Source: Lentisphaeria bacterium | Lineage (GTDB): Bacteria; Verrucomicrobiota; Lentisphaeria; Victivallales; Victivallaceae | Reading direction: 5' to 3' | DNA length: 50,659 nt | NCBI GenBank assembly: GCA_017508015.1 | Contig: JAFVZS010000070.1 | Location: 1-50,659 of the forward strand | Shown: one piece after another, positions 609-46,540 of the stretch | How the letters are laid out: every line of letters begins with the position of its first letter | Numbering within the stretch: position 1 is the stretch's first letter | Translations under genes and position numbers: made by a program | Notes under the pieces: model-generated | Database searches by the model: none | What the model saw: only the letters and a program-made list of their open reading frames with translations | What the model was told of the DNA's origin: nothing

Positions 609-1003
609 CGTTTTCTTTGCCTGCTTTCTTTATAGAAAAGAACGCAGGGAATTTCGCTTTTCTTTGGTTACTTTCTTTTCTCGTGAAAATGCAGAATAAC
701 ATTTACGTTTTCTTTGCCTGCTTTCTTTATAGAAAAGAAAGTAGGGAATTTCGCTTTTCTTTGGTTACTTTCTTTTCTCGTGAGAATGTAGATGTAGAAT
801 GAAATTTCCGTTTTCTTTGCCTGCTTTCTTTATAGAAAAGAACGCAGGGAATCCCGCTTTTCTTTGGTTACTTTCTTTTCTCGTGAAAATGTAGATGTAG
901 AATGAAATTTCCGTTTTCTTTGCCTACTTTCTTTATAAAAAAGAAAGTAGGGAATCCCGCTTTTCTTTGGTTACTTTCTTTTCTCGTGAAAAGAAAGTAA
1001 CGG
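609..1003. repeat. tandem array of 4 near-identical units (97, 103, 103 and ~92 bp), each carrying hairpin-forming inverted repeats
   Basis: Units start at 609, 706, 809 and 912, each with CGTTTTCTTTGCC. Each unit has hairpin 1 (CCTRCTTTCTTT...AAAGAAMGYAGG), which is perfect with a 12-bp stem in unit 4 (923-951). Each also has the left arm of hairpin 2 (GTTACTTTCTTTTC). Only unit 4 completes hairpin 2: 970-983 pairs with 988-1001, a 14-bp stem with loop TCGT. There are no unique spacers. Confidence 0.9.
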
Positions 1004-3394
1004 CCAGGAGTGTTTGGGATAACGGGAGCGCATTTCGGCGCGGACAAGTTCCCAGGAGCCGGCCCAGAACCCCGGGAGATCGCAAGTTACCTGAACGGGG
1101 CGGCGTGCGGGGGAGAGCAATTCGATGCGCAGGGGGATGCGGTTTTTGCCGACGGTGGGGTGGGTATTGACGGTGTACAATTCCTGAATGATGATTCCGG
1201 CGGTAGGTTGAGGGCCGGAATAATTGATGGGGAATTTATGGCCGGATGGGGCGATGAAAAATTCCGGGCAGAGCCGATCGAGTTCAGAAAGGGTGATGTA
1301 ATCGATGGCGGAACGGAGGATGCTGAACCAGTCGGCTTTTTTTAAGTCGTTGAGATTATTGATGTTATCCGGGAAAAAGTTGGCGATGGATATAAAATAG
1401 GAGTATTCATCGGTCAAATCGGGCAGTTCATCCATGCCGCAGGATTTTGCGAAACGGATCCGTTGTAAAAGGGAAGAGGCGCGTTTGTTGTCGGCCGGTG
1501 GCAGAGGGATGGCGCGGCGGGCGGATTCTTTGAGCAGTGCGGGGATCACGGTTTCGCGCGGCACGGGACACAGGTGACGGGAAAGGGGCAATTCATCAAG
1601 ACATTTTTCGGTATAAGAGATCAATTTTCCGGAGTTGCTGTCAAAGGTGGTGACAGTTCTTGCGGAGATTTGTCCGGAGAAAAAAGTTTCGATAGTTGAC
1701 CGGTCGATGGGCAGTGCCAGACGGATGGCGGCATTGGCGGCAGAAGTGCCGTCGATACGGGCGATGGCGAGGAACTCATTTTTACGCAGGAAGTCATCTT
1801 CTCTGACAGATGCGGCACTGCCGTTGGCCAGTTGAAAGGTGGTTCCGTGGGAGGAACGGTTGCGGGCGATGTATTCCGGGAAGGCGATGGCGATGAGCAG
1901 ACCGGGATCATCGGAAGAGTTTTCCGGAGCTGGAGGGAATATTTTAAGAAGCTGGGAAATGATGGTTTGCCGGATGTGTCCGGAGTTTTTGCCGGAATCC
2001 AACTGCCGGATACGTTCGGTCAGGTCGGCGGTATTGAAGTGGGTGAAATCATCTTTTTCCTCTAAAATGGCGGCCAATTCGGCGGCGGTACGGCGCAGGG
2101 ATGGCGGGGCGAAGATCATCATGGCGGCCAGTCGCGGAGAAACCGGCATGACGGCAGCCTGTTTCCCGGCGGGAGTCGGGAGATTTGCCGGAGAGAGCAG
2201 AGAAAGTTTCTGAAGCAGAGCAGTTGCGGCGGCGACTGCGGCCGCCGGAGGGGGATCGAGCCAGCGCAAAGAGGCAGCATCGGCCCCCCAAACCCTTACG
2301 GAAAGGATCAAGCGGGATAATTCAGAGACGGTTATTTCCGGGGACGGAGCTTGGCAGAATTGTTCGAAAGTTAAACGGCTGTAACATCTTACAGCTTTGC
2401 CCGGGGCAGTTCTGCCTGCTCTGCCGGAGCGTTGAATGGCAGAAGCTTTGGTGATTCGTCCGGTTTCAAGAAAGGTCATTTGTGCACCGGGGTGATATAC
2501 GGCCCGCTTTCCCCAGCCGGAATCAATAACGCATGAGATATTGTCGATGGTCAGGCTGCTTTCGGCGACATTGGTAGCCAGAATAATGTTGTGCACATCC
2601 GGCGGCGGCGGGGCCATGGCGGCATGCTGTTCGGCAAGAGAGAGCGAACCATGAAGGACACGGGTTTGGAAATTTTTTCCAAGAGATTGATCCAGAATCA
2701 GTTTACATTTTCTGATCTCTTCGGCACCGGGCAGGAAAACCAGAATATTTCCATTGGAGATATGGAGATTTTCCAGAACCGCCCGGGCGGTTTGCCGGGG
2801 GATTTCCCGGATATCCGGCGGAGTTTCGCGATAGGAGATGTCGACCGGAAAAGTGCGTCCGGGGACCGTGATAAGCGGTGCGTGGATAAAGTCGGCGGTG
2901 CGCTGGGATTCCAATGTGGCAGACATGATGACCAGAATCAGATCATCGCGCAGGGAATCCCGGATATCCAGAACGAGTGTCAGGGCCAAATCCGATTCGG
3001 CAGAGCGTTCGTGAAATTCATCGAATATGATGGCATTTATTCCTTCAAGAGCCGGATCATGCTGGAGCATTTGCAGTAAAATTCCGGGGGTGACAGCCAG
3101 AATGCCGTCAGAGTGACAGCGGCACTGTTCGCCGCGGACGGCGAATCCGGTTTCTTTACCGACGGTGAGGTTGTGGAGTTTGGCGATTCCGCAGGCGGCG
3201 GCCCGGGCGGCGATCCGGCGCGGTTCAACGAGGATGGTCATGCCGCCGGGAGAAAATTCATTGATCAACGGTGGCACGAGCATGGTTTTCCCGGCACCGG
3301 GTTCAGCGGAAATCACCGCCATACGGCAGGCAGACAACGCATTACGGAGCTCATCAAGCTGATGATAAAGCGGCAGATTCGGAAATTGATTCAT
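971..3394 (-). CDS. hrpB: ATP-dependent RNA helicase HrpB (DEAH-box)
   Basis: 807 aa. Walker A AEPGAGKT, DEFHERS (DEAH box), MSATL motif, and a C-terminal RYPKHSWP as in HrpB. The last 9 codons and the stop lie inside the repeat hairpin at 970-1001. Confidence 0.95.
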   Translation of the reverse strand: MNQFPNLPLYHQLDELRNALSACRMAVISAEPGAGKTMLVPPLINEFSPGGMTILVEPRRIAARAAACGIAKLHNLTVGKETGFAVRGEQCRCHSDGILAVTPGILLQMLQHDPALEGINAIIFDEFHERSAESDLALTLVLDIRDSLRDDLILVIMSATLESQRTADFIHAPLITVPGRTFPVDISYRETPPDIREIPRQTARAVLENLHISNGNILVFLPGAEEIRKCKLILDQSLGKNFQTRVLHGSLSLAEQHAAMAPPPPDVHNIILATNVAESSLTIDNISCVIDSGWGKRAVYHPGAQMTFLETGRITKASAIQRSGRAGRTAPGKAVRCYSRLTFEQFCQAPSPEITVSELSRLILSVRVWGADAASLRWLDPPPAAAVAAATALLQKLSLLSPANLPTPAGKQAAVMPVSPRLAAMMIFAPPSLRRTAAELAAILEEKDDFTHFNTADLTERIRQLDSGKNSGHIRQTIISQLLKIFPPAPENSSDDPGLLIAIAFPEYIARNRSSHGTTFQLANGSAASVREDDFLRKNEFLAIARIDGTSAANAAIRLALPIDRSTIETFFSGQISARTVTTFDSNSGKLISYTEKCLDELPLSRHLCPVPRETVIPALLKESARRAIPLPPADNKRASSLLQRIRFAKSCGMDELPDLTDEYSYFISIANFFPDNINNLNDLKKADWFSILRSAIDYITLSELDRLCPEFFIAPSGHKFPINYSGPQPTAGIIIQELYTVNTHPTVGKNRIPLRIELLSPARRPVQVTCDLPGFWAGSWELVRAEMRSRYPKHSWPLLSFHEKRK

Positions 3395-4454: not shown

Positions 4455-5312
4455 ATGAATCGGAGTTCTTTTTGGGTTTTTTTGACCATGTTTTGCGTTG
4501 CGGTTGCCGGAGCGGCGGAACGTCCGTCAGTAAAAGGTGTGGTCAATGCAGATGTTTTAAATTTGCGTCAGGGGCCGGGGTTGCAGCAGCCGGTAGTCGG
4601 CCGGATCACGGAAAAAAGCGAAGTGGAAATTTTACGGGTGACCGGAAATTGGCTGGAAATAAAAGCCCCGTCCACCTTGGCCGTTTATGTTTCCGAGGCC
4701 CGTATCGGCCGGGATGGCGTATTGACCGGCGAGTTGAATATGCGTACGGCGATGAGCAGTAAAGCTCCGTGTCTTGGAACTTTGCCCAAAGGGACCAAAG
4801 TAAATAAAATCGGTGAATCCCGCAATGGTTGGGTACGTATTGAGTTGCCCGCAGAAGCCGGTATTTCGGTATATGCCGCATCATTTCTGGTGACCTTTGA
4901 TTCATCCAAATTTGATGCCGGCGGCAATATCATCGGTACTGTTCCGGCAGAAGCTCCGGCGACTGCTGAAAAACCTGCCGCCGCAGAAGTTCCGGCGACT
5001 GCTGAAAAACCTGCCGCCGCAGAAGTTCCGGCGACTGCTGAAAAACCTGCCGCCGCAGAAGCTCCGGCCGCCGCTGACAAGATCGAGTTGACCGGTTATG
5101 TCTGCAAATGGAAATACAGCACTGCCAAAGAGTGCGATTACACTTTGCTTGATGAACCCAATGGTTTCAATCTGGCTTTCATTTTCAGTGAAACTCCTGC
5201 TGAACTTGCTGCGCTTGAAGGTAAAAAGGTAAAAGTTTCCGGAAGCAATGCCGGCAGATTCGGCAATAACGGAGTGATCATTATCAAAGTGGACAGCATT
5301 GCTGAATTATAA
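4455..5312 (+). CDS. secreted protein with two SH3b-like domains, a repeat linker and a C-terminal domain
   Basis: Signal peptide MNRSSFWVFLTMFCVAVAGAA. Two segments match the pattern 'G.V....LN.R.GP.......G......V.......GNW..I' / 'NGWVRIELP', typical of bacterial SH3 domains. A Pro/Ala/Glu repeat linker follows. Confidence 0.85.
   Translation: MNRSSFWVFLTMFCVAVAGAAERPSVKGVVNADVLNLRQGPGLQQPVVGRITEKSEVEILRVTGNWLEIKAPSTLAVYVSEARIGRDGVLTGELNMRTAMSSKAPCLGTLPKGTKVNKIGESRNGWVRIELPAEAGISVYAASFLVTFDSSKFDAGGNIIGTVPAEAPATAEKPAAAEVPATAEKPAAAEVPATAEKPAAAEAPAAADKIELTGYVCKWKYSTAKECDYTLLDEPNGFNLAFIFSETPAELAALEGKKVKVSGSNAGRFGNNGVIIIKVDSIAEL
4948..5076 (+). repeat. in-frame 36-bp tandem repeat (3 full units plus one partial) encoding AEVPATAEKPAA
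   Basis: The unit GCAGAAGTTCCGGCGACTGCTGAAAAACCTGCCGCC occurs at 4948, 4984 and 5020 and is nearly perfect. A partial fourth copy runs to 5076. Confidence 0.9.
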
Positions 5313-7394: not shown

Positions 7395-8417
7395 ATGGCA
7401 AACGGAAACTTTTTCAAACATTGGCCGACAATGTTGCTCGGTCTGATCGTGGCGTTGATCCTGCTTACGGCGGTATTTTCGTTCCAGCTCAATCAGACGG
7501 AAGTCGCAGTAGTCACTACTTTCGGCAGACCTGCAGTGGTCAGCGAACCGGGACTGCACTTCCGCTGGCCCTATCCCTTTCAAAAAGTTTATCGCTTCGA
7601 CAAGCGTATCCGCTGTTATGAAGGCAGCAGCGGCCGTCTTGAGGAAACTGTAACCAAAGACGGTCACAATATCATCGTCGGCATCTACGTCAACTACCGT
7701 ATCAGCGATGTGGAGGTGTTTTTCAGCAAGCTTCAGGATATTTCCGGAGCCGAAGAAGTGCTCAATACGTTGATGCGCAGTGCGAAAAATGCGGCATTCG
7801 GCAAACGTGATTTCAAGCAGATCATCGTCTATGCCGGTCAGGAAACTGAAGAGGGCATCCGGGATGCCGCCGCACGGCAGGGTGAGAGTGCCGTGCAGAG
7901 TCAGGCACGCAGTGTGACTGACCTCAATGTGATCGCCGATGATATCAAAGCGACTCTGGTCGCTGATACCAGAGATTTCGGAATCGAAATCGTCGATGTC
8001 GGCATCAGCAGTCTCGGCGTGCCGGAAACGGTTACCGAAAAGGTCTTTGAGCGCATGATCGCTGAACGCCGGCGTTTTGTCGAGCAGAATCTGGCCCGCG
8101 GCCGCAGTGAAGCTGAAAAGATCCGCGTTGAAGCCAATTTGAACCGGGATAAACAGATCGCTGAAGCTCAGGCCGAAGCCTTGAGATTGCGGGCCGAGGG
8201 TGATGCGGCGGCCGCTCAATTCTACAAAGAATTTGCCAAAGATCAGGAGTTGGCTGAATTTCTCCGTAAGATCGAAGCTCTGCGGATGATGCTCAGAGAA
8301 CGCACCACACTGATCCTGGATCCCAGTATGCCTCCGTTTGATATCCTCAGCCCCGGAACTGTAATCCCCGGCAGCGGTGAAAAACCGGCCGCTGCGGCTC
8401 CGGCAGCCGTTAAGTGA
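7395..8417 (+). CDS. SPFH/band-7 protein, HflC-like
   Basis: 340 aa with a single N-terminal TM. Motifs TEVAVVTTFGRP..EPGLHFRWPYPFQKV, GIEIVDVGISSLGVPE, ERMIAERRR and AEGDAAAA are as in HflC. Confidence 0.88.
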   Translation: MANGNFFKHWPTMLLGLIVALILLTAVFSFQLNQTEVAVVTTFGRPAVVSEPGLHFRWPYPFQKVYRFDKRIRCYEGSSGRLEETVTKDGHNIIVGIYVNYRISDVEVFFSKLQDISGAEEVLNTLMRSAKNAAFGKRDFKQIIVYAGQETEEGIRDAAARQGESAVQSQARSVTDLNVIADDIKATLVADTRDFGIEIVDVGISSLGVPETVTEKVFERMIAERRRFVEQNLARGRSEAEKIRVEANLNRDKQIAEAQAEALRLRAEGDAAAAQFYKEFAKDQELAEFLRKIEALRMMLRERTTLILDPSMPPFDILSPGTVIPGSGEKPAAAAPAAVK

Positions 8418-33797: not shown

Positions 33798-33824
33798 GTG
33801 ATCGGTTTGGTCATCATCAGCATT

Positions 33825-34724
33825 ATGAAAAAGTTGATCCGTCCGGCAATGCTGATATTGCCGTTATGTACCGGAATGTTTTTTCCGCAAGCGGCCTTTC
33901 TTGCCGGTGCGCCGTATAATTTCATCCGTTGGGCACTGGGAGTGATGATCTTTTGCAATGTTTTGCAGATCAATTTTGCCGATCTGAAAGTGCGTAAAGA
34001 ACACTTTGCCGTGCTTGGCGTGAATATCCTTATGGGAGTGATCCCGTTTTATATCTTGAAGTTTCTGTTGCCTTCCGGAGAAATTTATTCACATGCCGCT
34101 TTTTTTGCCGGTATTGCACCAACTGCGACGTCGGCGGCAGTGATCGTTTCTCTGCTTAACGGCGATGTCGGTTTTGCAGTTACCGGGTTTCTGGTCACCA
34201 ATATCGGCATATCGCTGGTGCTGCTGTTGCTTATTCCGCTGATTTCCGGTGATTTTTCCGCATCTTTCATGCTCAATGTATTGTGGTCGATCATCAGTAC
34301 GATCATTATTCCCATGGGCTGTGCCCGGATCATCCGCCATGTTTATCCGGAGATACTCAAACATCGGGATGAATTGAAAAATTTCACGCTTGTTTTATGG
34401 TCAGCATCTTTATTTGTCATCGCGGCAGTTGCCCGGAAATATTTTGATCAGAATGCCGGAGCTTCACTTTGGTCTCTGGCGGTTACGGGAGTGATTGCCG
34501 CAGTTGTTTGTGCTTTGAATTTCACCATCGGTTACTTTTTGAGCCGCGGAAAATTCCGGAAGGAAGCATCGCAGATACTGGGGCAGAAAAACACCACATT
34601 TGCCATCAGTCTGGCAATCGAATATTCCAGCGGGATTGCCGCTTTATCCGCCATATTTTACGTATTGTTTCACAATCTCTGGAATTCACTTCAACTGTTG
34701 AGGCATCACGGGAAAGGCAACTGA
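33825..34724 (+). CDS. membrane transporter, bile acid:Na+ symporter (BASS/SBF)-like
   Basis: About 9-10 TM helices. FFAGIAPTATSAAVIVSLLNGD resembles the BASS signature segment. The start is uncertain: the track's GTG 33798 lies in the upstream terminator T-tract, and the next start is ATG 33825. Confidence 0.7.
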   Translation: MKKLIRPAMLILPLCTGMFFPQAAFLAGAPYNFIRWALGVMIFCNVLQINFADLKVRKEHFAVLGVNILMGVIPFYILKFLLPSGEIYSHAAFFAGIAPTATSAAVIVSLLNGDVGFAVTGFLVTNIGISLVLLLLIPLISGDFSASFMLNVLWSIISTIIIPMGCARIIRHVYPEILKHRDELKNFTLVLWSASLFVIAAVARKYFDQNAGASLWSLAVTGVIAAVVCALNFTIGYFLSRGKFRKEASQILGQKNTTFAISLAIEYSSGIAALSAIFYVLFHNLWNSLQLLRHHGKGN

Positions 34725-37122: not shown

Positions 37123-37151
37123 TTGCATTTGGATAAAAGAGAGTATATATT
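37123..37151 (+). promoter_or_regulatory. sigma70-type promoter of the LacI-family gene
   Basis: TTGCAT (37123-37128), 17-nt spacer, TATATT (37146-37151). Confidence 0.6.
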
Positions 37152-37155
37152 ATTA

Positions 37156-37171
37156 GCGCAAACGTTTGCGC
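37156..37171. promoter_or_regulatory. LacI-family operator O1, a perfect 16-bp palindrome
   Basis: GCGCAAACGTTTGCGC lies immediately downstream of the -10 element. It has the AAACGTTT core typical of LacI/GalR-family operators. Confidence 0.75.
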
Positions 37172-37196
37172 AAAGTAGATTTTCAGGGTGGTATAT

Positions 37197-38180
37197 ATGG
37201 CGACACTTGCAGATGTAGCAGCATTGGCCGGTTGTTCGGTATCGGTTGTTTCGCGGGTTTTGAGACCCAAAGACAGCGGCAGTGACCGTATTGCTCCGGC
37301 GACCAGAGACCGGGTCCGTGAAGCCGCCGCCAAACTCGGTTACCGCCCGAATCGCACGGCGGAGTTTCTGAAATACGGCAGAGTTCCGGAAATAGGGGTG
37401 TTTTTGCCCCGGTTCGACAACTCGCTGATTCTGGATATCGTGAGGGGTTGTTCCGAAGCCGCCAGAGAAGCCGGATTTCCTCTTTCCTTTTTCTTTGATC
37501 AGGAAGTTGACAATTTCAGCCGGTTCATGCATGATACTATCGGCCGCAAAAATTGCGGTATCATCACCTGCGCTCCGGAATTGGAGCTGGCCGGTGAATC
37601 TTTCAAACTGATTAGCAATTATTGTGATGCCGGTGGTTTTCTGGTGTTGATCGATAACTGTGAGCGCGAATTTGTTTGTAATGAACGTGCGGCCAAAGTG
37701 ATCGTGGATGATGAATATGGCGGTTTTCTGGCGGCACAGCGTCTGTTGGAAAGCAACTGTGAAAAATTCTTCATTCAGGCTCCCAGGCGGCCGAGGGCAT
37801 ACGGCTTTATCAAAGGCATCGAAGGTGCTGGCAAAGAGGTGATCTGGCTGCCTAAAGGTGATCAGGCTACTGAAGAACTTTTTACGATGCTGATGAATTG
37901 TTCCACCACGGCCGGAGTTTTCTGCAGCAGTGACCGTCTGGCGATAAAACTTCATTCCAAATTGGCCGGAGTCGGTGAAATGCCCGGCAACCGGATCAAA
38001 CTGATCGGTTACGATGATACTTACAACTCCGATGTGTTGTCTCCGGCATTGACTTCCATCCGGCAACCGTTTTTTGAAAGCGGTTTTCTGGCGGTGAAAT
38101 ATCTTTTGAATATGATCTATGATCAGCCGGTTGAGCCGGAGATCCTCAAACCGGTTTTAATCGGAAGGCAAACCGCATGA
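37197..38180 (+). CDS. LacI family transcriptional regulator
   Basis: N-terminal HTH ATLADVAALAGCSVSVVSRVL, followed by a periplasmic-binding-protein-like sugar-binding core. ATG 37197 is preferred over the track start 37188. Confidence 0.93.
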   Translation: MATLADVAALAGCSVSVVSRVLRPKDSGSDRIAPATRDRVREAAAKLGYRPNRTAEFLKYGRVPEIGVFLPRFDNSLILDIVRGCSEAAREAGFPLSFFFDQEVDNFSRFMHDTIGRKNCGIITCAPELELAGESFKLISNYCDAGGFLVLIDNCEREFVCNERAAKVIVDDEYGGFLAAQRLLESNCEKFFIQAPRRPRAYGFIKGIEGAGKEVIWLPKGDQATEELFTMLMNCSTTAGVFCSSDRLAIKLHSKLAGVGEMPGNRIKLIGYDDTYNSDVLSPALTSIRQPFFESGFLAVKYLLNMIYDQPVEPEILKPVLIGRQTA

Positions 38181-38208
38181 TTTTGCGGCAAAGTTTTTTT
38201 GAATAATT

Positions 38209-38226
38209 TGCTCAAACGTTTGCGCA
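38209..38226. promoter_or_regulatory. LacI-family operator O2
   Basis: TGCTCAAACGTTTGCGCA shares CAAACGTTTGCGCA with O1 and has one arm mismatch. It ends 3 nt before the AAAGGAG SD of the 38241 gene. Confidence 0.7.
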
Positions 38227-38240
38227 AAGAAAGGAGCATT

Positions 38241-39395
38241 ATGAAAACGAAGTGTAAACAAGCTGTGGATAAAAATTTGCAATGGTTTTGCTCCTCCGGG
38301 GTGATGGTTCCGGAAAATGGTTTATGGGGGGTGGCCGAGCGTCTGGCTGTGAAAAGTGGCAATGCGGCATTGGATGAGATACTGGAGTCATTTCCGGCCT
38401 GGACGGAAAAGTCTGATTGTTATGTTATCGAACAGCGGCGGGCAGATTGCAACTTCCAGGCGGCATGGCTTTTTCTGCTGGCTGACCGGATTTTTCCGGG
38501 GTGCGGTTACGGGGAGACCGGAAAGAATATTCTGGATTTTCTCTATTGCCGCAGCGGTTTGCTGGAGCGCAAAAAAAGTGCCGATATCCCCGGCAACTGG
38601 AATTGGTCACACATCAAGCGGGATTCCGTAGTATATTTTGATGATGAAGCGTGGTGCATATTCATCCAGTTGCGTATTGCCGATGAATTTCCGGAATTGG
38701 ATAAGCGGTACAATATGCGTTTCTGGGCGGAAACTCTGGCTGAAAGTTTATATGCCGGTGCAACTGACCCGGATAAGACTCCACTGTGGCGGGGGGAATT
38801 GGCCAAGCCGCACTGGGGGGCTCTGGCCGCCATGGCTCTGGCCCAAAGCGGTGGAAAAAATATGGATAAGTACCGGAAGTTTTGTCTGGAATATTTCCGC
38901 AATGTCGATATTCCCAACGTGAGCGAATATGCGTATGCTCTTTTGGGAGCGGTAAATTGTATGTTGAAATTCGGCAGGGAAGATTTTTTACCTTTGGTGG
39001 AAAAATATGTTGATGCCATTATTTCCGTTTGTGATCCGGCAAGCGGCTTGCCTCCTTCGGAACACAGCCGGGAAACTCCGGCGGGTAAAAATCTGGCGGA
39101 TTTGATCTACACGGTCAACTGGGCCGTTGCCGGTCTGCGGGAAGCCGGATTGCTTCTCGGAGGCAAATGTACTGAAATCGCCGGAAAAATTCTGGATTTT
39201 CTGCATAGTATACAGGATGATTCAGCCAATAAAACATTCAACGGCTGCTGGCGGGGAATGTATGATACTGCCACCGGCAAATGGGGCGGCGGTGATCGTT
39301 TTGAAGGTGGCGGGAACAGTATTTATACCGGCTGGACCAATGCGCCGATCGCATTGACCATGCTGTTTGAATATATGGGAAAAAGTATGTTTTAA
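38241..39395 (+). CDS. hypothetical cytoplasmic protein, possibly an (alpha/alpha)-toroid enzyme
   Basis: 384 aa from ATG 38241 (SD AAAGGAG; the track start at TTG 38199 overlaps operator O2). The protein is helix-rich and W-rich with no signal peptide. I did not confidently recognise a family. Confidence 0.8.
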
Positions 39396-39418
39396 TGGTC
39401 ATGAAAGGAGATTGGGAA

Positions 39419-40336
39419 ATGTTGAAAAAAAGAAAAGTTTTTACGTTGATCGGGTTGCTGGTAAGCACAGTTATCTCACCATTGCATTTTTTGACACCAA
39501 AATCTTACCGCACGGCATCATCAAAAAGTATCCCGCTTTTCTTTGAAAGCGAAAGGGGGCGCGGGGGAAAGGGAAAACTCTCTTTTCCCGTGAAAAGAAA
39601 GTTTTCCTTGTCCACCGCACACTCATTTACTTTAATAGAATTGCTGGTGGTCATTGCCATTATTGCCATTTTAGCGGCGATCCTGCTTCCGGCACTTAAT
39701 TCTGCCCGTGAGCGGGGGCGGGCAGCAAGTTGCATAGCCAACATGAAGCAGATGATTTCCGGTTATCATCTGTATTGGGATGATGCAGATATGCCGTTGC
39801 CGCCGCGTATGACCAGAGAGGGCAGTGGCAAGCCGTGGTTGAGCTGGTATTGGTATCTGGCTCCTTATATTGGTCTGCCCCGGTATGAGTCGCACAGCAA
39901 ATTGCTGGCAGATATGCGCTCCAGACAGGGCAGTTCGGTTTATGATTGTCCGTCGGTGGTCAAGCATGAGAATAACGAATTGGGCGGGGCTCCGACCTAT
40001 AAATTCACGGCGCACTACTTTACCCGAACCATGCATGGCAGAACGCAGGATGCCGATCCGAATTGTCCCAACACCTCTGATACTCTGGTTTTTGTCGATG
40101 GAGATGATGGCAATACGGCGCAAAGTTTCGGTACGGCGGCATGGTATCGGCTGACCAGACACACCGGAGAGAAAGAGTATGGTCAGGGGGCCGGTGCGCA
40201 TAATGGTTCGGTGACGGTCGGTTTTTATGATGCTCATGTCGGCATGGTGAAAACCGCCAGTTACACGGATGCTCAAGGAAAGTTGCGTATGGGTATTCCC
40301 GGCACGGTCGCTGAATATGAAAAATATTGGTATTGA
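39419..40336 (+). CDS. prepilin-type N-terminal cleavage/methylation domain protein, H-X9-DG (DUF1559-like) family, with a duplicated leader
   Basis: Canonical [29 protein letters not shown] starts at codon F=39626. The C-terminus has [12 protein letters not shown] (H-X9-D). ATG 39419 has a strong AAGGAG SD (39405-39410) and encodes a first, degenerate leader, [15 protein letters not shown]. An alternative in-frame GTG lies at 39590. Confidence 0.88.
39530..39607 (+). repeat. copy of the hairpin repeat family seen at 609-1003, embedded in the prepilin-like gene 5' region
   Basis: ATCCCGCTTTTCTTTG (39530-39545) is identical to 851-866 and 954-969. The hairpin 39572-39587 / 39592-39607 pairs 15 of 16 bp with loop CCGT. 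Its core CTTTTCCCGTGAAAAGAAAGT matches 20 of 21 nt of CTTTTCTCGTGAAAAGAAAGT at 978-998. Confidence 0.85.
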
Positions 40337-40338
40337 TC

Positions 40339-43257
40339 ATGAAAAATATAATCGTATTTTTATGTTCAGCAGTCATGTTTTTCTCTGCGGTTGCGGGGTA
40401 TGATTTCAACAAGGCATTCTGGAGTTGCTGGCCGCGCAATGCCGGTAAAGTGGAAAGTTTGCGTGACCGGGGGAAACGGACGGTATCGTTTGAGTTTCAA
40501 AATTCAACTGTTCCGGTATCTTTTTACACCAGAGGCACTGGCAATGCCGGTGAACTTTGCCGGTTGGATATGGAATTTGAATGCAGTGATTTGCAGATGA
40601 CGGAAAGCAGTTCGGCGAAAGTCATTATCGCATTTCAAAATGAGAGCAAACGCCCCGGCAGTGCCGGGGAAATTTCGCATGATTTACCGCTGGCCGCCGG
40701 CAGAAATAATTTCCGTTGTTCTTTTGTTATGCCCGATGGTGCGGCAGATTATCAGATTTCCCTGTGTTTGACCGGCATTTCCGGCAAGATAAGTGTGACC
40801 GGATGCCGGGTGGAAGTTTTGCCGTTAAGTGCGGTAATTGCTCCGTATGCCGGAGGATCGGCGGCATCCCGTTATGTGACCGCCACCGGGATCAACGGTT
40901 TTTTCCGTTACGGCAGTGCTTATCCGGCGGTTGCGGATTCGACGGTTTTTCTGACTTATGACCGGGAAAATCTTTATGTGAAAGTTATTTGCCGGGAAAG
41001 TGACATCTCATGTTTGCGTACTGCTGTAAGTGATTGTGACGGGCCGGTTTATCTGGATGATTCGGTGGAGTTGTTTTTTGCTCACGGCGACCGGGTCTGG
41101 CAGTTGGTGACGAATAGTGCCGCAGTCCGCTGTGACGGGGAATTGAAAATTTCCATTCCCGGTGATCCCCGCCGCTTTGATGCGTCGTGGAACGGGTCAT
41201 GGCGGGTCGAATGTGAAAAGGGCGAAGGATTATGGAGTGCGGAATTTATCATTCCTTTTGCCGATCTTGAGTTTGCTCCGGCTGCCGGAGCAGTGTTGCG
41301 GGTGAATGTGTTGCGCAACCGCCGGGGCGCAGCGCAGGAGCAGACCCAGCTTGACCGGCGTTTCGGAATGCCGGGCAAGGAGGCTCACTTCAGCCGGATC
41401 ACATTCAGAAACAGTGATGCACTTTTCGTCCGCAGTGTGATGGATATGGATGGCGATACGCTGGCGGTAGTCCGGCAGAAACGGGAATTTGCCCAGGTGC
41501 CCCGGCGAGACGGGAATTATCTGGTCATCGGCCCCGGATGCGACATCTATCTGGAGCGTTACAGCGCACCATTCCAGGAGCAGAACCGGGAAAGTTGGCC
41601 GCAAAGAACGATGGAGATCATTGCCGCAATGCAGAATAACGGTATGCTGGTTCCGGCGTTTTATCCGTGGGTGATCCAGCATTTGGGCGGCCGGGAAAAC
41701 TATTCCCGGATCATGGCCGCATATCCGGATCTGAAGTTTGCACTTGCCATTCACAATACTTCCCACGACCGCACTGTTATTGGCAATGGAGCCGTTTATT
41801 TTCACGGGAGATCAAGCAATATCGGGGATAAAAAACTGGGAATATGCACGGCGGAATTTCTGGAAAAATTTCTTACGGAAAATGCCGATGCGGTCAGTCG
41901 CTCTGTTTTTGCCAGAGGTTTTGATGAACCGACAAATTCATTGATCTCCTGTTTCAGTTATTCGCTGAATCCGGAAAATCTCACCGCATTGCAGAGTTTG
42001 AATGAATTTATCCGGAAAAATTACGGTTACGGGAAATATGGTATGCCGGATCTGAACCGGGGGATGACCGATCCGGATGACGGTTTGCGCCATATTGCAT
42101 TCTGCCGCTGGTGGAATGATCAGGCGGCGGCAACTTTCAACCGGTTGCGGGATATTTTGAAAAATCATGCTCCGCAAATGCCGTTTATGCCGCTGGTTTG
42201 CAATACTGTGGCGGCTTACAGCGGCTTTGAAGAGTTGCCGTTGCTGGCCCGTTACGGTGATTGGATCGGGGTCGATCCTTATCCGACTGCCACACGCACT
42301 ATTTTTTCAGCGGCAAGAGCGGTTTATCACACCGGATTTTGCACCAGATTGGCTCATGATCTGGCGTCACCGGCCAAAATTTTTGTTTATGTGCAGGCAT
42401 TCCGTTATCACGGGCAATCGCCCAGTGCGGAAAACCTCACTGAATGGGTGTCACAGGCATTGAAAAACGGTGCGGATATCCTCTCATTCTATGCGTTGAA
42501 AAATTTGGAAGAGTGTCCGGATATTTACCCGCAAATATTGAATTTGAGCCGGAGCGTTACCACGATGAGACCTTTGGCTCTGCCGGAGAAAAGTCCGGTG
42601 GCGATATTGTATAATTATGTCGGCAACTGGGGGCGTTTTGACCGGGGACAGATGGATTATTATTCGCTGTATTCCATTTTTGCCGAAAAGATCAGAGGGG
42701 ATTTTGTCTTTATCAGTGACCGTCAGTTGATGGAAGATAAAAAAGTGCCGGCTCATGTGAAAATATGCTTTGCCCCGGCATTGGAATATGTGGATAAGTC
42801 AGTGGCCAACGCGTTGGAAAATTTTGTGCGTAACGGCGGTACATTGATTATCCTTGATCCGGAAGCATTCCGGATCGCACCGGATGGTGAGCCGGTGGCA
42901 CAGCGGGAAAGTTTACTGGGTGATCCAGTGACAACAGCGATACCGGCGGCCGGATTTATCTATTTCGGAGCCGGCCGCAAACCGTTGCGGATTTTTGCGG
43001 ATAACGGCGCAACGTGCCGGGCGGTCGTGCCGCCGGATGATGCTGAAGTGGAAGCGGTCTGGACCAATGGCCGGTGTGCCGCTTACCGCCGTCAGGTCGG
43101 CAAGGGTAAAGTTATATATTTTGCGGTCAATCCTTTTGCCAACGGGGAAGCGGCACTTCAGGCGGGAAACTGGGTGGAGTATTTCTATAACTTTTTCCGG
43201 GAAAACGGCGTGCGCCGGGGGATGAAGATCTGGGATTTCGTTTTGCCGGGGAATTGA
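40339..43257 (+). CDS. large secreted protein with a CBM9/DOMON-like carbohydrate-binding module and a possible glycoside-hydrolase-like C-terminal region
   Basis: Signal peptide MKNIIVFLCSAVMFFSAVAG. The segment YLDDSVELFFA...WSAEFIIPFADL...LRVNVLRNR resembles CBM family 9. The C-terminal part (GVDPYP, FVRNGGTLIILDPEAF) is reminiscent of a GH42-type barrel plus a GATase1-like domain. The functional call is tentative. Confidence 0.82.
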   Translation: MKNIIVFLCSAVMFFSAVAGYDFNKAFWSCWPRNAGKVESLRDRGKRTVSFEFQNSTVPVSFYTRGTGNAGELCRLDMEFECSDLQMTESSSAKVIIAFQNESKRPGSAGEISHDLPLAAGRNNFRCSFVMPDGAADYQISLCLTGISGKISVTGCRVEVLPLSAVIAPYAGGSAASRYVTATGINGFFRYGSAYPAVADSTVFLTYDRENLYVKVICRESDISCLRTAVSDCDGPVYLDDSVELFFAHGDRVWQLVTNSAAVRCDGELKISIPGDPRRFDASWNGSWRVECEKGEGLWSAEFIIPFADLEFAPAAGAVLRVNVLRNRRGAAQEQTQLDRRFGMPGKEAHFSRITFRNSDALFVRSVMDMDGDTLAVVRQKREFAQVPRRDGNYLVIGPGCDIYLERYSAPFQEQNRESWPQRTMEIIAAMQNNGMLVPAFYPWVIQHLGGRENYSRIMAAYPDLKFALAIHNTSHDRTVIGNGAVYFHGRSSNIGDKKLGICTAEFLEKFLTENADAVSRSVFARGFDEPTNSLISCFSYSLNPENLTALQSLNEFIRKNYGYGKYGMPDLNRGMTDPDDGLRHIAFCRWWNDQAAATFNRLRDILKNHAPQMPFMPLVCNTVAAYSGFEELPLLARYGDWIGVDPYPTATRTIFSAARAVYHTGFCTRLAHDLASPAKIFVYVQAFRYHGQSPSAENLTEWVSQALKNGADILSFYALKNLEECPDIYPQILNLSRSVTTMRPLALPEKSPVAILYNYVGNWGRFDRGQMDYYSLYSIFAEKIRGDFVFISDRQLMEDKKVPAHVKICFAPALEYVDKSVANALENFVRNGGTLIILDPEAFRIAPDGEPVAQRESLLGDPVTTAIPAAGFIYFGAGRKPLRIFADNGATCRAVVPPDDAEVEAVWTNGRCAAYRRQVGKGKVIYFAVNPFANGEAALQAGNWVEYFYNFFRENGVRRGMKIWDFVLPGN

Positions 43258-45835: not shown

Positions 45836-46540
45836 ATGAAACGATTTTTATATTCAATTGTGCTGTCGGCGGTCGTTTTTCTGACCGGTTCCGCCGCTGA
45901 ATCGGGACATGCCGCCGCAGAAAAAGCTGCCGCCGAAAAACTGGCCGCCGAAAAAGCCGCCGCCGAAAAACTGGCCGCCGAAAAAGCCGCCGCAGAAAAA
46001 CTGGCCGCCGAAAAAGCCGCCGCAGAAAAGGCGGTCATCGCAGCTGTGACCGGGCACCGGAGTGCATTGTTGAGTACAGATTTCAAGGCATTGCTTGCTC
46101 ACTGCTCTTCTGATTACCGGGAAACTGACGGCAATAGCCGCAGCCGCAGTTATGAGGAACTGGAAAAACTGGCCGGATATTTTCAATTGATGCAAAGTTC
46201 TGACGATCTGGAAGTGGTCATGGAAAATGCTCTGCTGCTTCAGGGCAGTTCCATGAGTGATTTCCAGCGGCAGCAGATCATTTCCGAAAAAAACAGTGCG
46301 CGCGGCAAGGAGCTTCTGACCATGCTTCGCACCAATTTCGCCAAACTGGCGGCTCAGGGACGGGAATTGGCCGCCCATATCCGGGTTTCTGCGGTGCGGA
46401 TAAATGGCGACCGGGCCACCGCAGTGTTGTATCTGACCGATCCGCTTTCCCGTAATACTTACCGCTGCGATTATCAACTGGTGAAACATGATGGCAAATG
46501 GCTGGTCAGCAGTACTGAAGTTAAAGGAACAGGCAAATGA
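45836..46540 (+). CDS. secreted NTF2-like (SnoaL/DUF4440-like) protein, paralog 1, with an AAEKAAAEKL repeat linker
   Basis: Signal peptide followed by the repeat linker. It shares a motif set with the next three genes (DF.ALL..C..DY...DG, SDDLEVV, QRQQI, DGKWLV). Confidence 0.82.
   Translation: MKRFLYSIVLSAVVFLTGSAAESGHAAAEKAAAEKLAAEKAAAEKLAAEKAAAEKLAAEKAAAEKAVIAAVTGHRSALLSTDFKALLAHCSSDYRETDGNSRSRSYEELEKLAGYFQLMQSSDDLEVVMENALLLQGSSMSDFQRQQIISEKNSARGKELLTMLRTNFAKLAAQGRELAAHIRVSAVRINGDRATAVLYLTDPLSRNTYRCDYQLVKHDGKWLVSSTEVKGTGK
45911..46033 (+). repeat. in-frame 30-bp tandem repeat (~4 units) encoding (AAEKAAAEKL)n
   Basis: GCCGCCGAAAAACTGGCCGCCGAAAAAGCC is repeated with single-base variants. 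Confidence 0.9.

Follow-up and report, generated by a model that had tools for sequence, protein, structure and literature searches.

A candidate A/T-rich intrastrand triplex repeat in a variable tandem array at the hrpB end of a Lentisphaeria bacterium

Intrastrand triplex repeats, for which classes I–IV have been defined, are represented by BoxC/PIT (Hoyne and Maher 2000) and TM_ECO (Holder et al. 2015), and triplex formation by the isolated TM_ECO strand has been shown physically (PMC4666352). Such repeats have so far been an orphan curiosity in bacteria: E. coli BoxC forms a triplex in vitro, with no in vivo signal or known function. Here, we describe a tandem array at positions 607–1004 of a 50,659-nucleotide stretch from a Lentisphaeria bacterium (GenBank assembly GCA_017508015.1, contig JAFVZS010000070.1; hereafter, the window), situated between a zinc-ribbon gene and hrpB. 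Its ~48-nt modules resemble BoxC/PIT and TM_ECO in carrying three homopyrimidine/homopurine blocks on one strand that can fold back twice into a triplex, in being multi-copy and intergenic, in lacking a linked promoter, terminator or transposase, and in their local genomic instability. From its sequence, we assign the module to the same kind of element as BoxC, not to the same family. While the kind is already known, what appears to be new is an A/T-rich family with fixed geometry and covariation support, which was found neither in Rfam nor in the searched literature. Our preference, held by a slender measure over its negation, is for a structured interspersed repeat of which a single strand would fold as a hairpin plus triple helix and which would have been amplified at this locus through instability of the hairpin apex.

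The array is composed of four tandem units of an interspersed structured repeat, each ~100-bp unit being a dimer (A+B) of two modules of one family, so that eight modules lie on the + strand. Read from 5′ to 3′, a complete module opens with a CG tail, followed by a pyrimidine strand (H), a linker G and a 4–6-bp clamp; then come the pyrimidine arm (Y), the NCGN loop and the purine arm (R), and the complement of the clamp closes it. For the complete B module, the sequence is CG-CTTTTCTTT-G-GTTA-CTTTCTTTTC-TCGT-GAAAAGAAAG-TAAC. The only complete B module of the array, B4 (957–1004, + strand), has its tail CG at 958–959, H CTTTTCTTT at 960–968, linker G at 969, clamp GTTA at 970–973, Y arm at 974–983, loop TCGT at 984–987, R arm GAAAAGAAAG at 988–997 and clamp TAAC at 998–1001, and its arms (970–983 and 988–1001) form an inverted repeat of 14 perfect pairs. 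A covariance model built from 58 modules collected outside the window returned eight hits at 607–1004, all on the + strand, with B4 scoring 74.3 bits; with filters off, only one other hit was obtained in 50 kb, at 39533–39605. Folded as RNA, B4 reaches a predicted −18.2 kcal/mol (z −4.6), and the whole array is strongly structured on either strand (folding z −5.9 and −5.3).

The Y arm is all-pyrimidine and lies 5′, the R arm is all-purine and lies 3′, and the two form the hairpin. H, the first of the three consecutive blocks, is the mirror image of Y and neither a direct nor an inverted repeat of it, which makes it the parallel Hoogsteen partner of R; the "loop" from H to Y consists of 1 nt plus the clamp, itself paired. 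Reading the triples from canonical H and R gives C+.G-C, four T.A-T, C+.G-C and three T.A-T. To our knowledge, no DNA rearrangement yields the complement of a sequence unreversed, so the maintenance of the mirror relation argues for selection for a parallel third-strand interaction. A single-strand H-Y-R fold with a major-groove triplex places the module among the intrastrand triplex repeats, with the + strand corresponding to class IV (H-Y-R) and the − strand to class II.

H tracks R across more than 30 sequence variants from Lentisphaerota, Nitrospirota, Hydrogenedentota and Clostridia. R GAAAGAAAAG is accompanied by H CTTTCTTTT in Nitrospirota, R AAAGGAAAGAGAA by H TTTCCTTTCTCTT in Clostridia, and R GAAAAGAAAGAGAAAAA by H CTTTTCTTTCTCTTTTT at locus L093, where the mirror matches at 17 of 17 positions and the direct repeat at only 9; two further R/H pairs are GAAAAGAAAAG/CTTTTCTTTT and GAAGAAAAAG/CTTCTTTTT. 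For a formal mirror test, one random representative was taken for each of 36 distinct non-canonical purine arms, and the upstream flanks were permuted among elements. The longest upstream mirror match averaged 9.31 nt, which none of 2000 permutations reached, versus 7.08 ± 0.22 nt after permutation, placing the third block in parallel register with the purine block. Across these arms, the mirror match was longer than the direct match in 21, shorter in 5 and tied in 10. G/C-rich pyrimidine/purine hairpins of other families at the same loci have no mirror strand.

The remaining parts of the module also covary. In the clamp, taken as its outer 4 bp, 99.5% of cells are paired, and 69 cells carry double changes versus 16.2 ± 3 after shuffling. 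Of 84 distinct elements, 76 have the first position of H opposite the apex-closing G, 56 have a single G joining H to the stem, and 65 have a further 4–6 bp of stem past the last triple; across the set, the triplex is 8–17 positions long. The dinucleotide 5′ of H tracks the loop, CG occurring with NCGN loops and a GG prefix with CC-containing loops (7/7 distinct cases, from Nitrospirota, Clostridia and Lentisphaerota); tail and loop fit in 30 of 49 combinations versus 19.6 expected, with 0/5000 shuffles reaching the observed value. The 5′ CG of the module can pair with the CG of the loop to form a tail-loop cap, a contact of 2 bp only that is read from the sequence alone. Co-variation of three strands together with a loop-tail contact, across four phyla, is the comparative signature normally accepted for a selected fold, and this natural variation supplies the comparative support missing for E. 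coli BoxC.

Tail, loop 1 (corresponding to H), stem, loop and stem follow one another as in an H-type pseudoknot whose loop 1 lies in the deep groove. Across the deep groove of an A-form helix, such pseudoknots can span ~6 bp with one nucleotide, and a single-G linker next to a 4–6-bp clamp would therefore be sterically sensible for RNA. The H/Y/R fold can be envisaged for RNA, or for DNA when unwound. H-DNA within the duplex was set aside as the main fold: the H/Y pyrimidine mirror repeat with its 5–6-nt spacer provides the sequence requirement of H-DNA, but H-DNA needs the H/Y mirror only and no same-strand inverted repeat, leaving the covarying R arm, clamp and loop-tail pairing unexplained. 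These covarying parts point instead to the fold of a single strand, which, if confirmed, would constitute a long natural bacterial triple helix of simple, portable design.

Comparison with BoxC reveals both the likeness and the distance. The − strand of the module, with the order Y, loop, R, loop, R, has the class II order of BoxC. The BoxC consensus, CCCTCNCCC N3-6 GGGNGAGGG N3 GGGNGAGGG, is not present in the module, which is A/T-rich and of unrelated sequence. In contrast to BoxC, the module would favour a pyrimidine-motif triplex (class IV, T.A-T), a type that RNA can adopt as well; it has in addition the covarying 4–6-bp clamp, the single-G linker and the tail-loop pairing; and it is found in four other phyla, with a derived form that appears to provide the leader and start codon of a gene family. 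The ITxF survey considered A/T-rich motifs closer to chance expectation (PMC4666352), and the covariation of the module argues otherwise.

The module shares with the repetitive extragenic palindromic (REP) sequences and bacterial interspersed mosaic elements (BIMEs) of Enterobacteria and Pseudomonas the form of a short, multi-copy, extragenic, imperfect palindrome at gene 3′ ends, sometimes clustered, with the gene context here taken from crude counts. REP hairpins stabilise upstream mRNA. Assignment to REP/BIME proper was rejected: the eight array modules have one orientation whereas BIMEs alternate, the module has no GTAG-type 5′ tetranucleotide and no REP-associated tyrosine transposase (RAYT) within 2.5 kb, and it possesses a third mirror-image strand that REPs lack. 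A first-pass annotation, made from the sequence of the window, had called the array a REP/miniature inverted-repeat transposable element (MITE)-like structure. The element is indeed multi-copy, structured, interspersed and REP-like in the broad sense; the MITE part was rejected, since neither insertion-sequence terminal inverted repeats nor, within 2.5 kb, a linked or recurrent transposase was seen.

RNA major-groove triple helices, including the element for nuclear expression (ENE) with its A-rich tract in PAN, MALAT1 and transposon RNAs and the pseudoknots of telomerase RNA and of the SAM-II and preQ1-II riboswitches, likewise hold a purine-rich strand between Watson-Crick and Hoogsteen U-rich strands, and the triple-helix pseudoknots place the third strand at the loop 1 position in the deep groove. 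The ENE is located at RNA 3′ ends and protects the RNA (review PMC13541005). Unlike the ENE, the module is a simple 5′ strand plus hairpin and not an internal-loop clamp on a 3′ tail; it differs from the riboswitch pseudoknots in a much longer run of triples (8–17), and its likeness to RNA triple helices, in base triples and third-strand placement, is a predicted one.

The three-strand design is maintained across lineages, and the family is multi-copy. An exact scan for the core 19-mer TTTTCNCGTGAAAAGAAAG, with one genome per species, located at least 118 loci in Lentisphaeria/Victivallaceae gut metagenome-assembled genomes (MAGs), Nitrospirota, Hydrogenedentota and Clostridia/Eubacteriales MAGs. 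Among the matches listed, there are often several contigs per MAG, and most hairpin-bearing core matches carry the upstream flank CGCTTTTCTTTG, which lies outside the search pattern. The covariance model gave 249 matches at E ≤ 0.01 in 100 of the core loci, tandem clusters included, a count that covers both strands and in which many matches are reverse-strand echoes of one hairpin. A degenerate metagenome pattern, with four H, five Y and five R positions open to any pyrimidine/purine, yielded 27 matches, all 27 with canonical H/Y/R and with differing clamps, loops and upstream flanks, indicating that the core is conserved in sequence as well as structure. Within the window, the search for other copies of a 21-mer that the first-pass annotation had proposed found one further exact copy, at 39582–39602.

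At the Rfam gathering score, the window and 18 related loci gave tRNAs only, and in E-value mode the two window copies gave nothing relevant; absence of the module from Rfam is neutral for an RNA function. In a literature string search, CGCTTTTCTTTG was absent from the 15 top-ranked papers listed, and the other matches listed were unrelated primers/oligonucleotides. Joint Genome Institute (JGI) metagenomes searched for orthologous hrpB-end loci returned zero matches. All-against-all BLASTP of 1363 open reading frames (ORFs) lying within 2.5 kb of modules revealed no recurrent family, only translated repeats and housekeeping orthologues, and no linked transposase was present among them. A single module match in 2.9 million viral contigs led us to reject a phage origin.

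Unit number changes between near-identical strains. Locus L001, with flanks 99.5% identical to the window, contains five units versus four here, the strain variation for which the first-pass annotation had suggested looking; L002 contains other unit variants, and its contig ends inside the array. The orthologous hrpB end of a Victivallaceae MAG (L097), to which the window, apparently from a Victivallaceae-like Lentisphaerota bacterium, is 79–84% identical, comprises one A+B dimer, an unrelated G+C-rich insert and a complete B module. MAG SIG92 (L081; 82–88% identity) carries 3.5 A+B units at 2204–2470 at another gene, oriented towards it as the array is towards hrpB, and its complete B hairpin is the gene-proximal one, supplying the tail LLSFHGKRK and the stop codon. 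The orthologous site in the window has only a decayed module relic (34689–34724) that forms the C-terminus of ORF 33798–34724.

Only the last copy is complete in the L097 and L081 clusters, and the same holds for those of L044 (beside a tRNA gene), L023 (103-bp period), L072, L090, L112 and L019. At several loci, truncated copies break just past the loop, with junctions within its first few following nucleotides: after GTGAAAA in the window and L097, GTGAAAAA in L081, GTGAAAAG in L072 and TTTTCCC in L044. The first-pass annotation had placed the breakpoints of tandem duplication inside the array's second hairpin (hairpin 2, of module B), and the window junctions agree with this, falling just past the hairpin 2 loop.

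A very stable fold would obstruct replication or be cut at the hairpin tip. The apex could be a hotspot where replication stalls and the template is switched, or where the tip is cleaved and then repaired. Such a hotspot would be in line with the genomic instability reported for intrastrand triplex repeats (PMC4666352). Slippage or repair would add or remove 97–103-bp units, unequal exchange would change the unit number, and expansion and contraction of this kind would leave only the gene-proximal B hairpin complete. Locally, the element would be passive cargo that supplies the hrpB stop codon, and the array would place strong hairpins where two convergent genes end, in the 3′ region that separates them; there they would probably act as a REP-like barrier to read-through and 3′ exonucleases. 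If the fold is confirmed, it would provide a testable cause for hypervariable ~100-bp arrays at gene ends.

Several points weigh against this interpretation. The triple helix is inferred from sequence symmetry and covariation only, and two of the nine triples are C+.G-C and require protonation. Sampling is biased, in that the canonical core is itself the search pattern and the relatives are all MAG or metagenome contigs. Perfect clamps could also stem from template switching within the palindrome and not from selection, and the strand test, with G-U versus C-A mismatches at 9 versus 12, is uninformative on the folding strand. Within the array, the purine arm is present in only one of four B modules, and the A modules give only seven triples and have no CG loop. 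The H-Y-R strand of the array follows a canonical terminator (570–588), and the RNA made here is most likely the hrpB 3′ region, on the strand opposite to H-Y-R, where the array hairpins can form. A purine-motif triplex is not expected in RNA (PMC4666352). Orientation is mixed: by crude gene calls, ten modules between co-directional genes are antisense and five sense.

The hrpB ORF (971–3394, − strand) overlaps hairpin 2, so the array, contrary to the annotation, is not confined to the space before hrpB. With the ORF reaching 971, the reverse complement of hairpin B4 encodes the last nine hrpB codons (LLSFHEKRK) and the stop codon (971–973) over 971–1000. The HrpB_C domain match, ending at residue 798 of 807, does not include this element-encoded tail, which recurs as LLSFHGKRK at the end of the L081 gene. 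In orientation counts across loci, made with crude ORF calls, the neighbour on the hairpin side is a convergent gene, with its 3′ end towards the module, in 40 of 59 cases, and the H side shows no preference (17:17). The short form is a gene-end element without a clean sense bias, which argues against a role solely at the level of RNA in the H-Y-R sense.

Other gene-end placements were observed. A complete module abuts the 3′ end of an opposite-strand tRNA gene with no spacer at L044 (7230–7508), L039 and L045, and at the same tRNA-end sites in Lentisphaeria MAGs, the upstream tandem copy is truncated in the loop. In two species, the array adjoins hrpB, a DEAH helicase gene, at its 3′ end. A link has been reported between Xanthomonas HrpB and type IV pilin fimA mRNA stability (PMC4804567); the occurrence of an hrpB-end array together with a long form in a pilin-gene leader may be a coincidence.

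The second module copy of the window is a long form (class B; 39533–39620, + strand), in which CCG-CTTTTCTTT and a purine-rich linker precede a ~27-bp hairpin that keeps the module apex; its predicted folding energy is −40 kcal/mol. Its 3′ arm encodes 12 residues directly ahead of the FTLIELLVV of an N_methyl/DUF1559 protein, and the start of this pilin-like gene is likely the GTG at 39590–39592, at the hairpin loop; with that GTG as the true start, the long form would certainly lie within the mRNA. Fourteen further distinct long-form copies, all in sense orientation, precede DUF1559 paralogues. The long stem shows five compensatory pairs, and H can alternatively pair with the following GAAAGNGAAAGGGG, where U-A to U-G changes are seen. 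The long form could sequester the start codon, and, if the fold is confirmed, it might be a control element for the very large DUF1559 pilin-like families of Lentisphaerota.

The mechanical ORF of the DUF1559 gene (39395–40336, with a 15-residue stretch at 39421) starts far upstream and begins with a degenerate second pilin N-terminus, ahead of the element. The reading frame is open through the translated element, in related loci too, so ORFs called from the first upstream start are given a spurious extension at the N-terminus, for which a confirmed fold would offer an explanation.

As an alternative, we regard as doubtful, though worth weighing seriously, that the module is first of all a functional RNA, a widely distributed bacterial tertiary motif not described before: a hairpin within a helix of 8–17 U.A-U/C+.G-C triples, closed by a loop-tail pseudoknot cap. 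Such a bacterial triple-helix pseudoknot would guard transcript ends from exonucleases as an ENE-like roadblock, the array being a by-product or a multi-hairpin 3′ untranslated region, and its long form would gate DUF1559 translation with the GUG start locked into loop and triplex. The long form speaks for this, being always in sense, with GTG at the loop, MKRK arising from the purine arm, five compensatory pairs in its stem and an H pairing partner that changes from U-A to U-G. The 1-nt linker over 4–6 bp fits the A-form deep groove in the manner of H-type pseudoknot loop 1, and the tail-loop covariation, the lineage-specific small hairpins just upstream and the conservation of the core sequence across phyla point in the same direction. 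RNA supports stable U.A-U triples and the formation of intrastrand triplexes of the pyrimidine motif (PMC4666352). However, the short form has no uniform orientation with respect to genes, the H-Y-R strand here follows a terminator with no promoter found in the array, and truncated copies, tandem clusters and presence/absence differences between related genomes resemble repeat DNA. A dedicated RNA function would be notable if true: pH, temperature or a helicase could control the opening of the gate, and the conserved module position at the hrpB 3′ end may be non-accidental, given the HrpB-pilin mRNA link (PMC4804567).

A plain hairpin repeat, serving as terminator or 3′ stabiliser for hrpB and other genes, would make H a T-rich low-complexity accident or a phase-shifted direct repeat. 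The abutment of modules on the 3′ ends of convergent genes or tRNAs at several loci suits this proposal, as does the closeness of canonical mirror (9 nt) and direct (7 nt) matches, CTTTTCTTTC being nearly periodic. We nevertheless judge it improbable, since the non-canonical variants separate the two (mirror versus direct, 17 versus 9, 14 versus 7 and 13 versus 9 nt; permutation, 0/2000), since no T-run lies 3′ of the hairpin on either strand and an intrinsic terminator would have its pyrimidine tract on the other side, and since it accounts neither for the constancy of the G linker nor for the length of the clamp or the covariation of tail and loop. Equally improbable is a non-autonomous MITE/REP-like mobile element moved in trans by a transposase (e.g., Y1/HUH) that recognises folded single-stranded DNA, with arrays arising by repeated insertion into the hairpin of a resident copy. 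Multiple copies, presence/absence differences between related genomes at one locus, the joining of different sequences at nearly one purine-arm point at independent loci and an A+B dimer array at two unrelated gene ends are compatible with mobility. No recurrent protein family was found within 2.5 kb of modules, the search being limited to those flanks; the viral contigs gave only their one match in 2.9 million; and no target-site duplication was seen, either at the array ends or in comparing the occupied L081 locus with its decayed window counterpart. A single-strand hairpin plus triple helix, amplified through its apex, remains the reading that we prefer.

The unit structure of the array was recovered in three ways. 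Tandem Repeats Finder reported 607–992 (period 103, 3.8 copies, 92% matches, score 625) together with periods of 47–56 bp, a repeat search gave four copies at spacings of 97/103/103, and alignment delimited unit 1 at 607–703 (97 bp), unit 2 at 704–806 (103 bp), unit 3 at 807–909 (103 bp) and unit 4 at 910–1003 (94 bp). The units are contiguous and 89–100% alike over their full length, and TACTTTCTT occurs eight times versus 0.15 expected. The four head-to-tail ~100-bp units of the first-pass annotation were thereby reproduced, as were its exclusions: a CRISPR array was rejected on the contiguity of the units and the lack of unique spacers, a coding array on internal ORFs that are repeat translations, and no transposase lies near the array. 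Its interpretation found partial support, and it had included neither the two-module dimer, the mirror pyrimidine strand and the hrpB stop codon nor the DUF1559 leader copy.

Each A module forms the first hairpin of its unit (hairpin 1), with predicted RNA folding energies of −13.7 to −15.9 kcal/mol. Module A1 (607–651, + strand) is composed of CG, TTTTCTTT, G and the hairpin CCTGCTTTCTTT/ATAGA/AAAGAACGCAGG with one T-C mismatch (32.1 bits; −13.7 kcal/mol). Module A2 (705–748, +) has a complete hairpin with one G-T wobble (−15.9 kcal/mol), A3 (807–851, +) a hairpin with one T-C mismatch, and A4 (910–954, +) the perfect 12-bp hairpin CCTACTTTCTTT/ATAAA/AAAGAAAGTAGG, with 12/12 Watson-Crick pairs (42.9 bits); A2 and A3 are also covariance-model hits. 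These arm states match the earlier description exactly. Its claim of arm covariation stood as regards the pairing states, while within the array the covariation amounts to a single compensatory pair among four units, the strong covariation being that of the family.

Units 1–3 carry the left arm of hairpin 2 and lack the right arm, so that hairpin 2 is completed only by the last unit, with its 14 pairs at 970–1001, just as first described. Truncated module B1 (654–703, +) comprises CG, CTTTTCTTT, G, GTTA, the pyrimidine arm, the TCGT loop and GAAAA (42.3 bits), the remainder of its purine arm being replaced by junction sequence. B2 (751–806, +; model hit 751–795) is truncated past the loop and followed by the junction TGTAGATGTAGAATGAAATT, and B3 (854–909, +; model hit 854–898) is likewise truncated past the loop and joined to junction sequence. 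Alone, the truncated B modules have no predicted stable fold (−4.6 kcal/mol, z +0.75).

The intrinsic terminator of the zinc-ribbon gene occupies 570–600 on the + strand, with a stem at 570–588 followed by a T-run, and the array lies downstream of it on that strand. The terminator scan called this as the only canonical terminator and none at the module hairpins, which were rejected as intrinsic terminators, with their pyrimidine tract preceding the hairpin. A promoter scan found none within the array.

Variants of the module flanks were also recorded. At L007 (3826–3881; Hydrogenedentota), the reverse complement of H is also present 3′ of the hairpin, producing a perfect 2 × 24-nt palindrome that looks like fold-back copying run through H. 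Lineage-specific small G+C hairpins lie 5–10 nt before the CG tail at L006, L034, L069, L071, L125, L143, L145, L147 and L020; many have GGA in the loop (e.g., CCGGCGGAAGGATTCCGCCGG and GCGCGGAGCGC) and resemble CsrA-type sites.

Further repeats and one large length difference were noted elsewhere. Positions 1–180 of the window start inside a 164-bp tandem repeat upstream of the zinc-ribbon gene, unrelated to the array, which in L001 (2559–2933) is present in 2.3 copies that are 97% alike. Two in-frame coding tandem repeats were identified: 36 bp × 3.4 (PATAEKPAAAE(V/A)-type) at 4947–5068 within ORF 4455–5312, next to which L001 has ~150 bp extra near 7836–7937, and 30 bp × 3.9 at 45914–46029. 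A 5.9-kb block of the window (37127–43039) is absent from L081, which is otherwise collinear and 82–88% identical on both sides. This block encodes a LacI-type regulator, a 398-aa protein, the DUF1559 gene and a 976-aa protein with weak glycoside-hydrolase-like Pfam hits.

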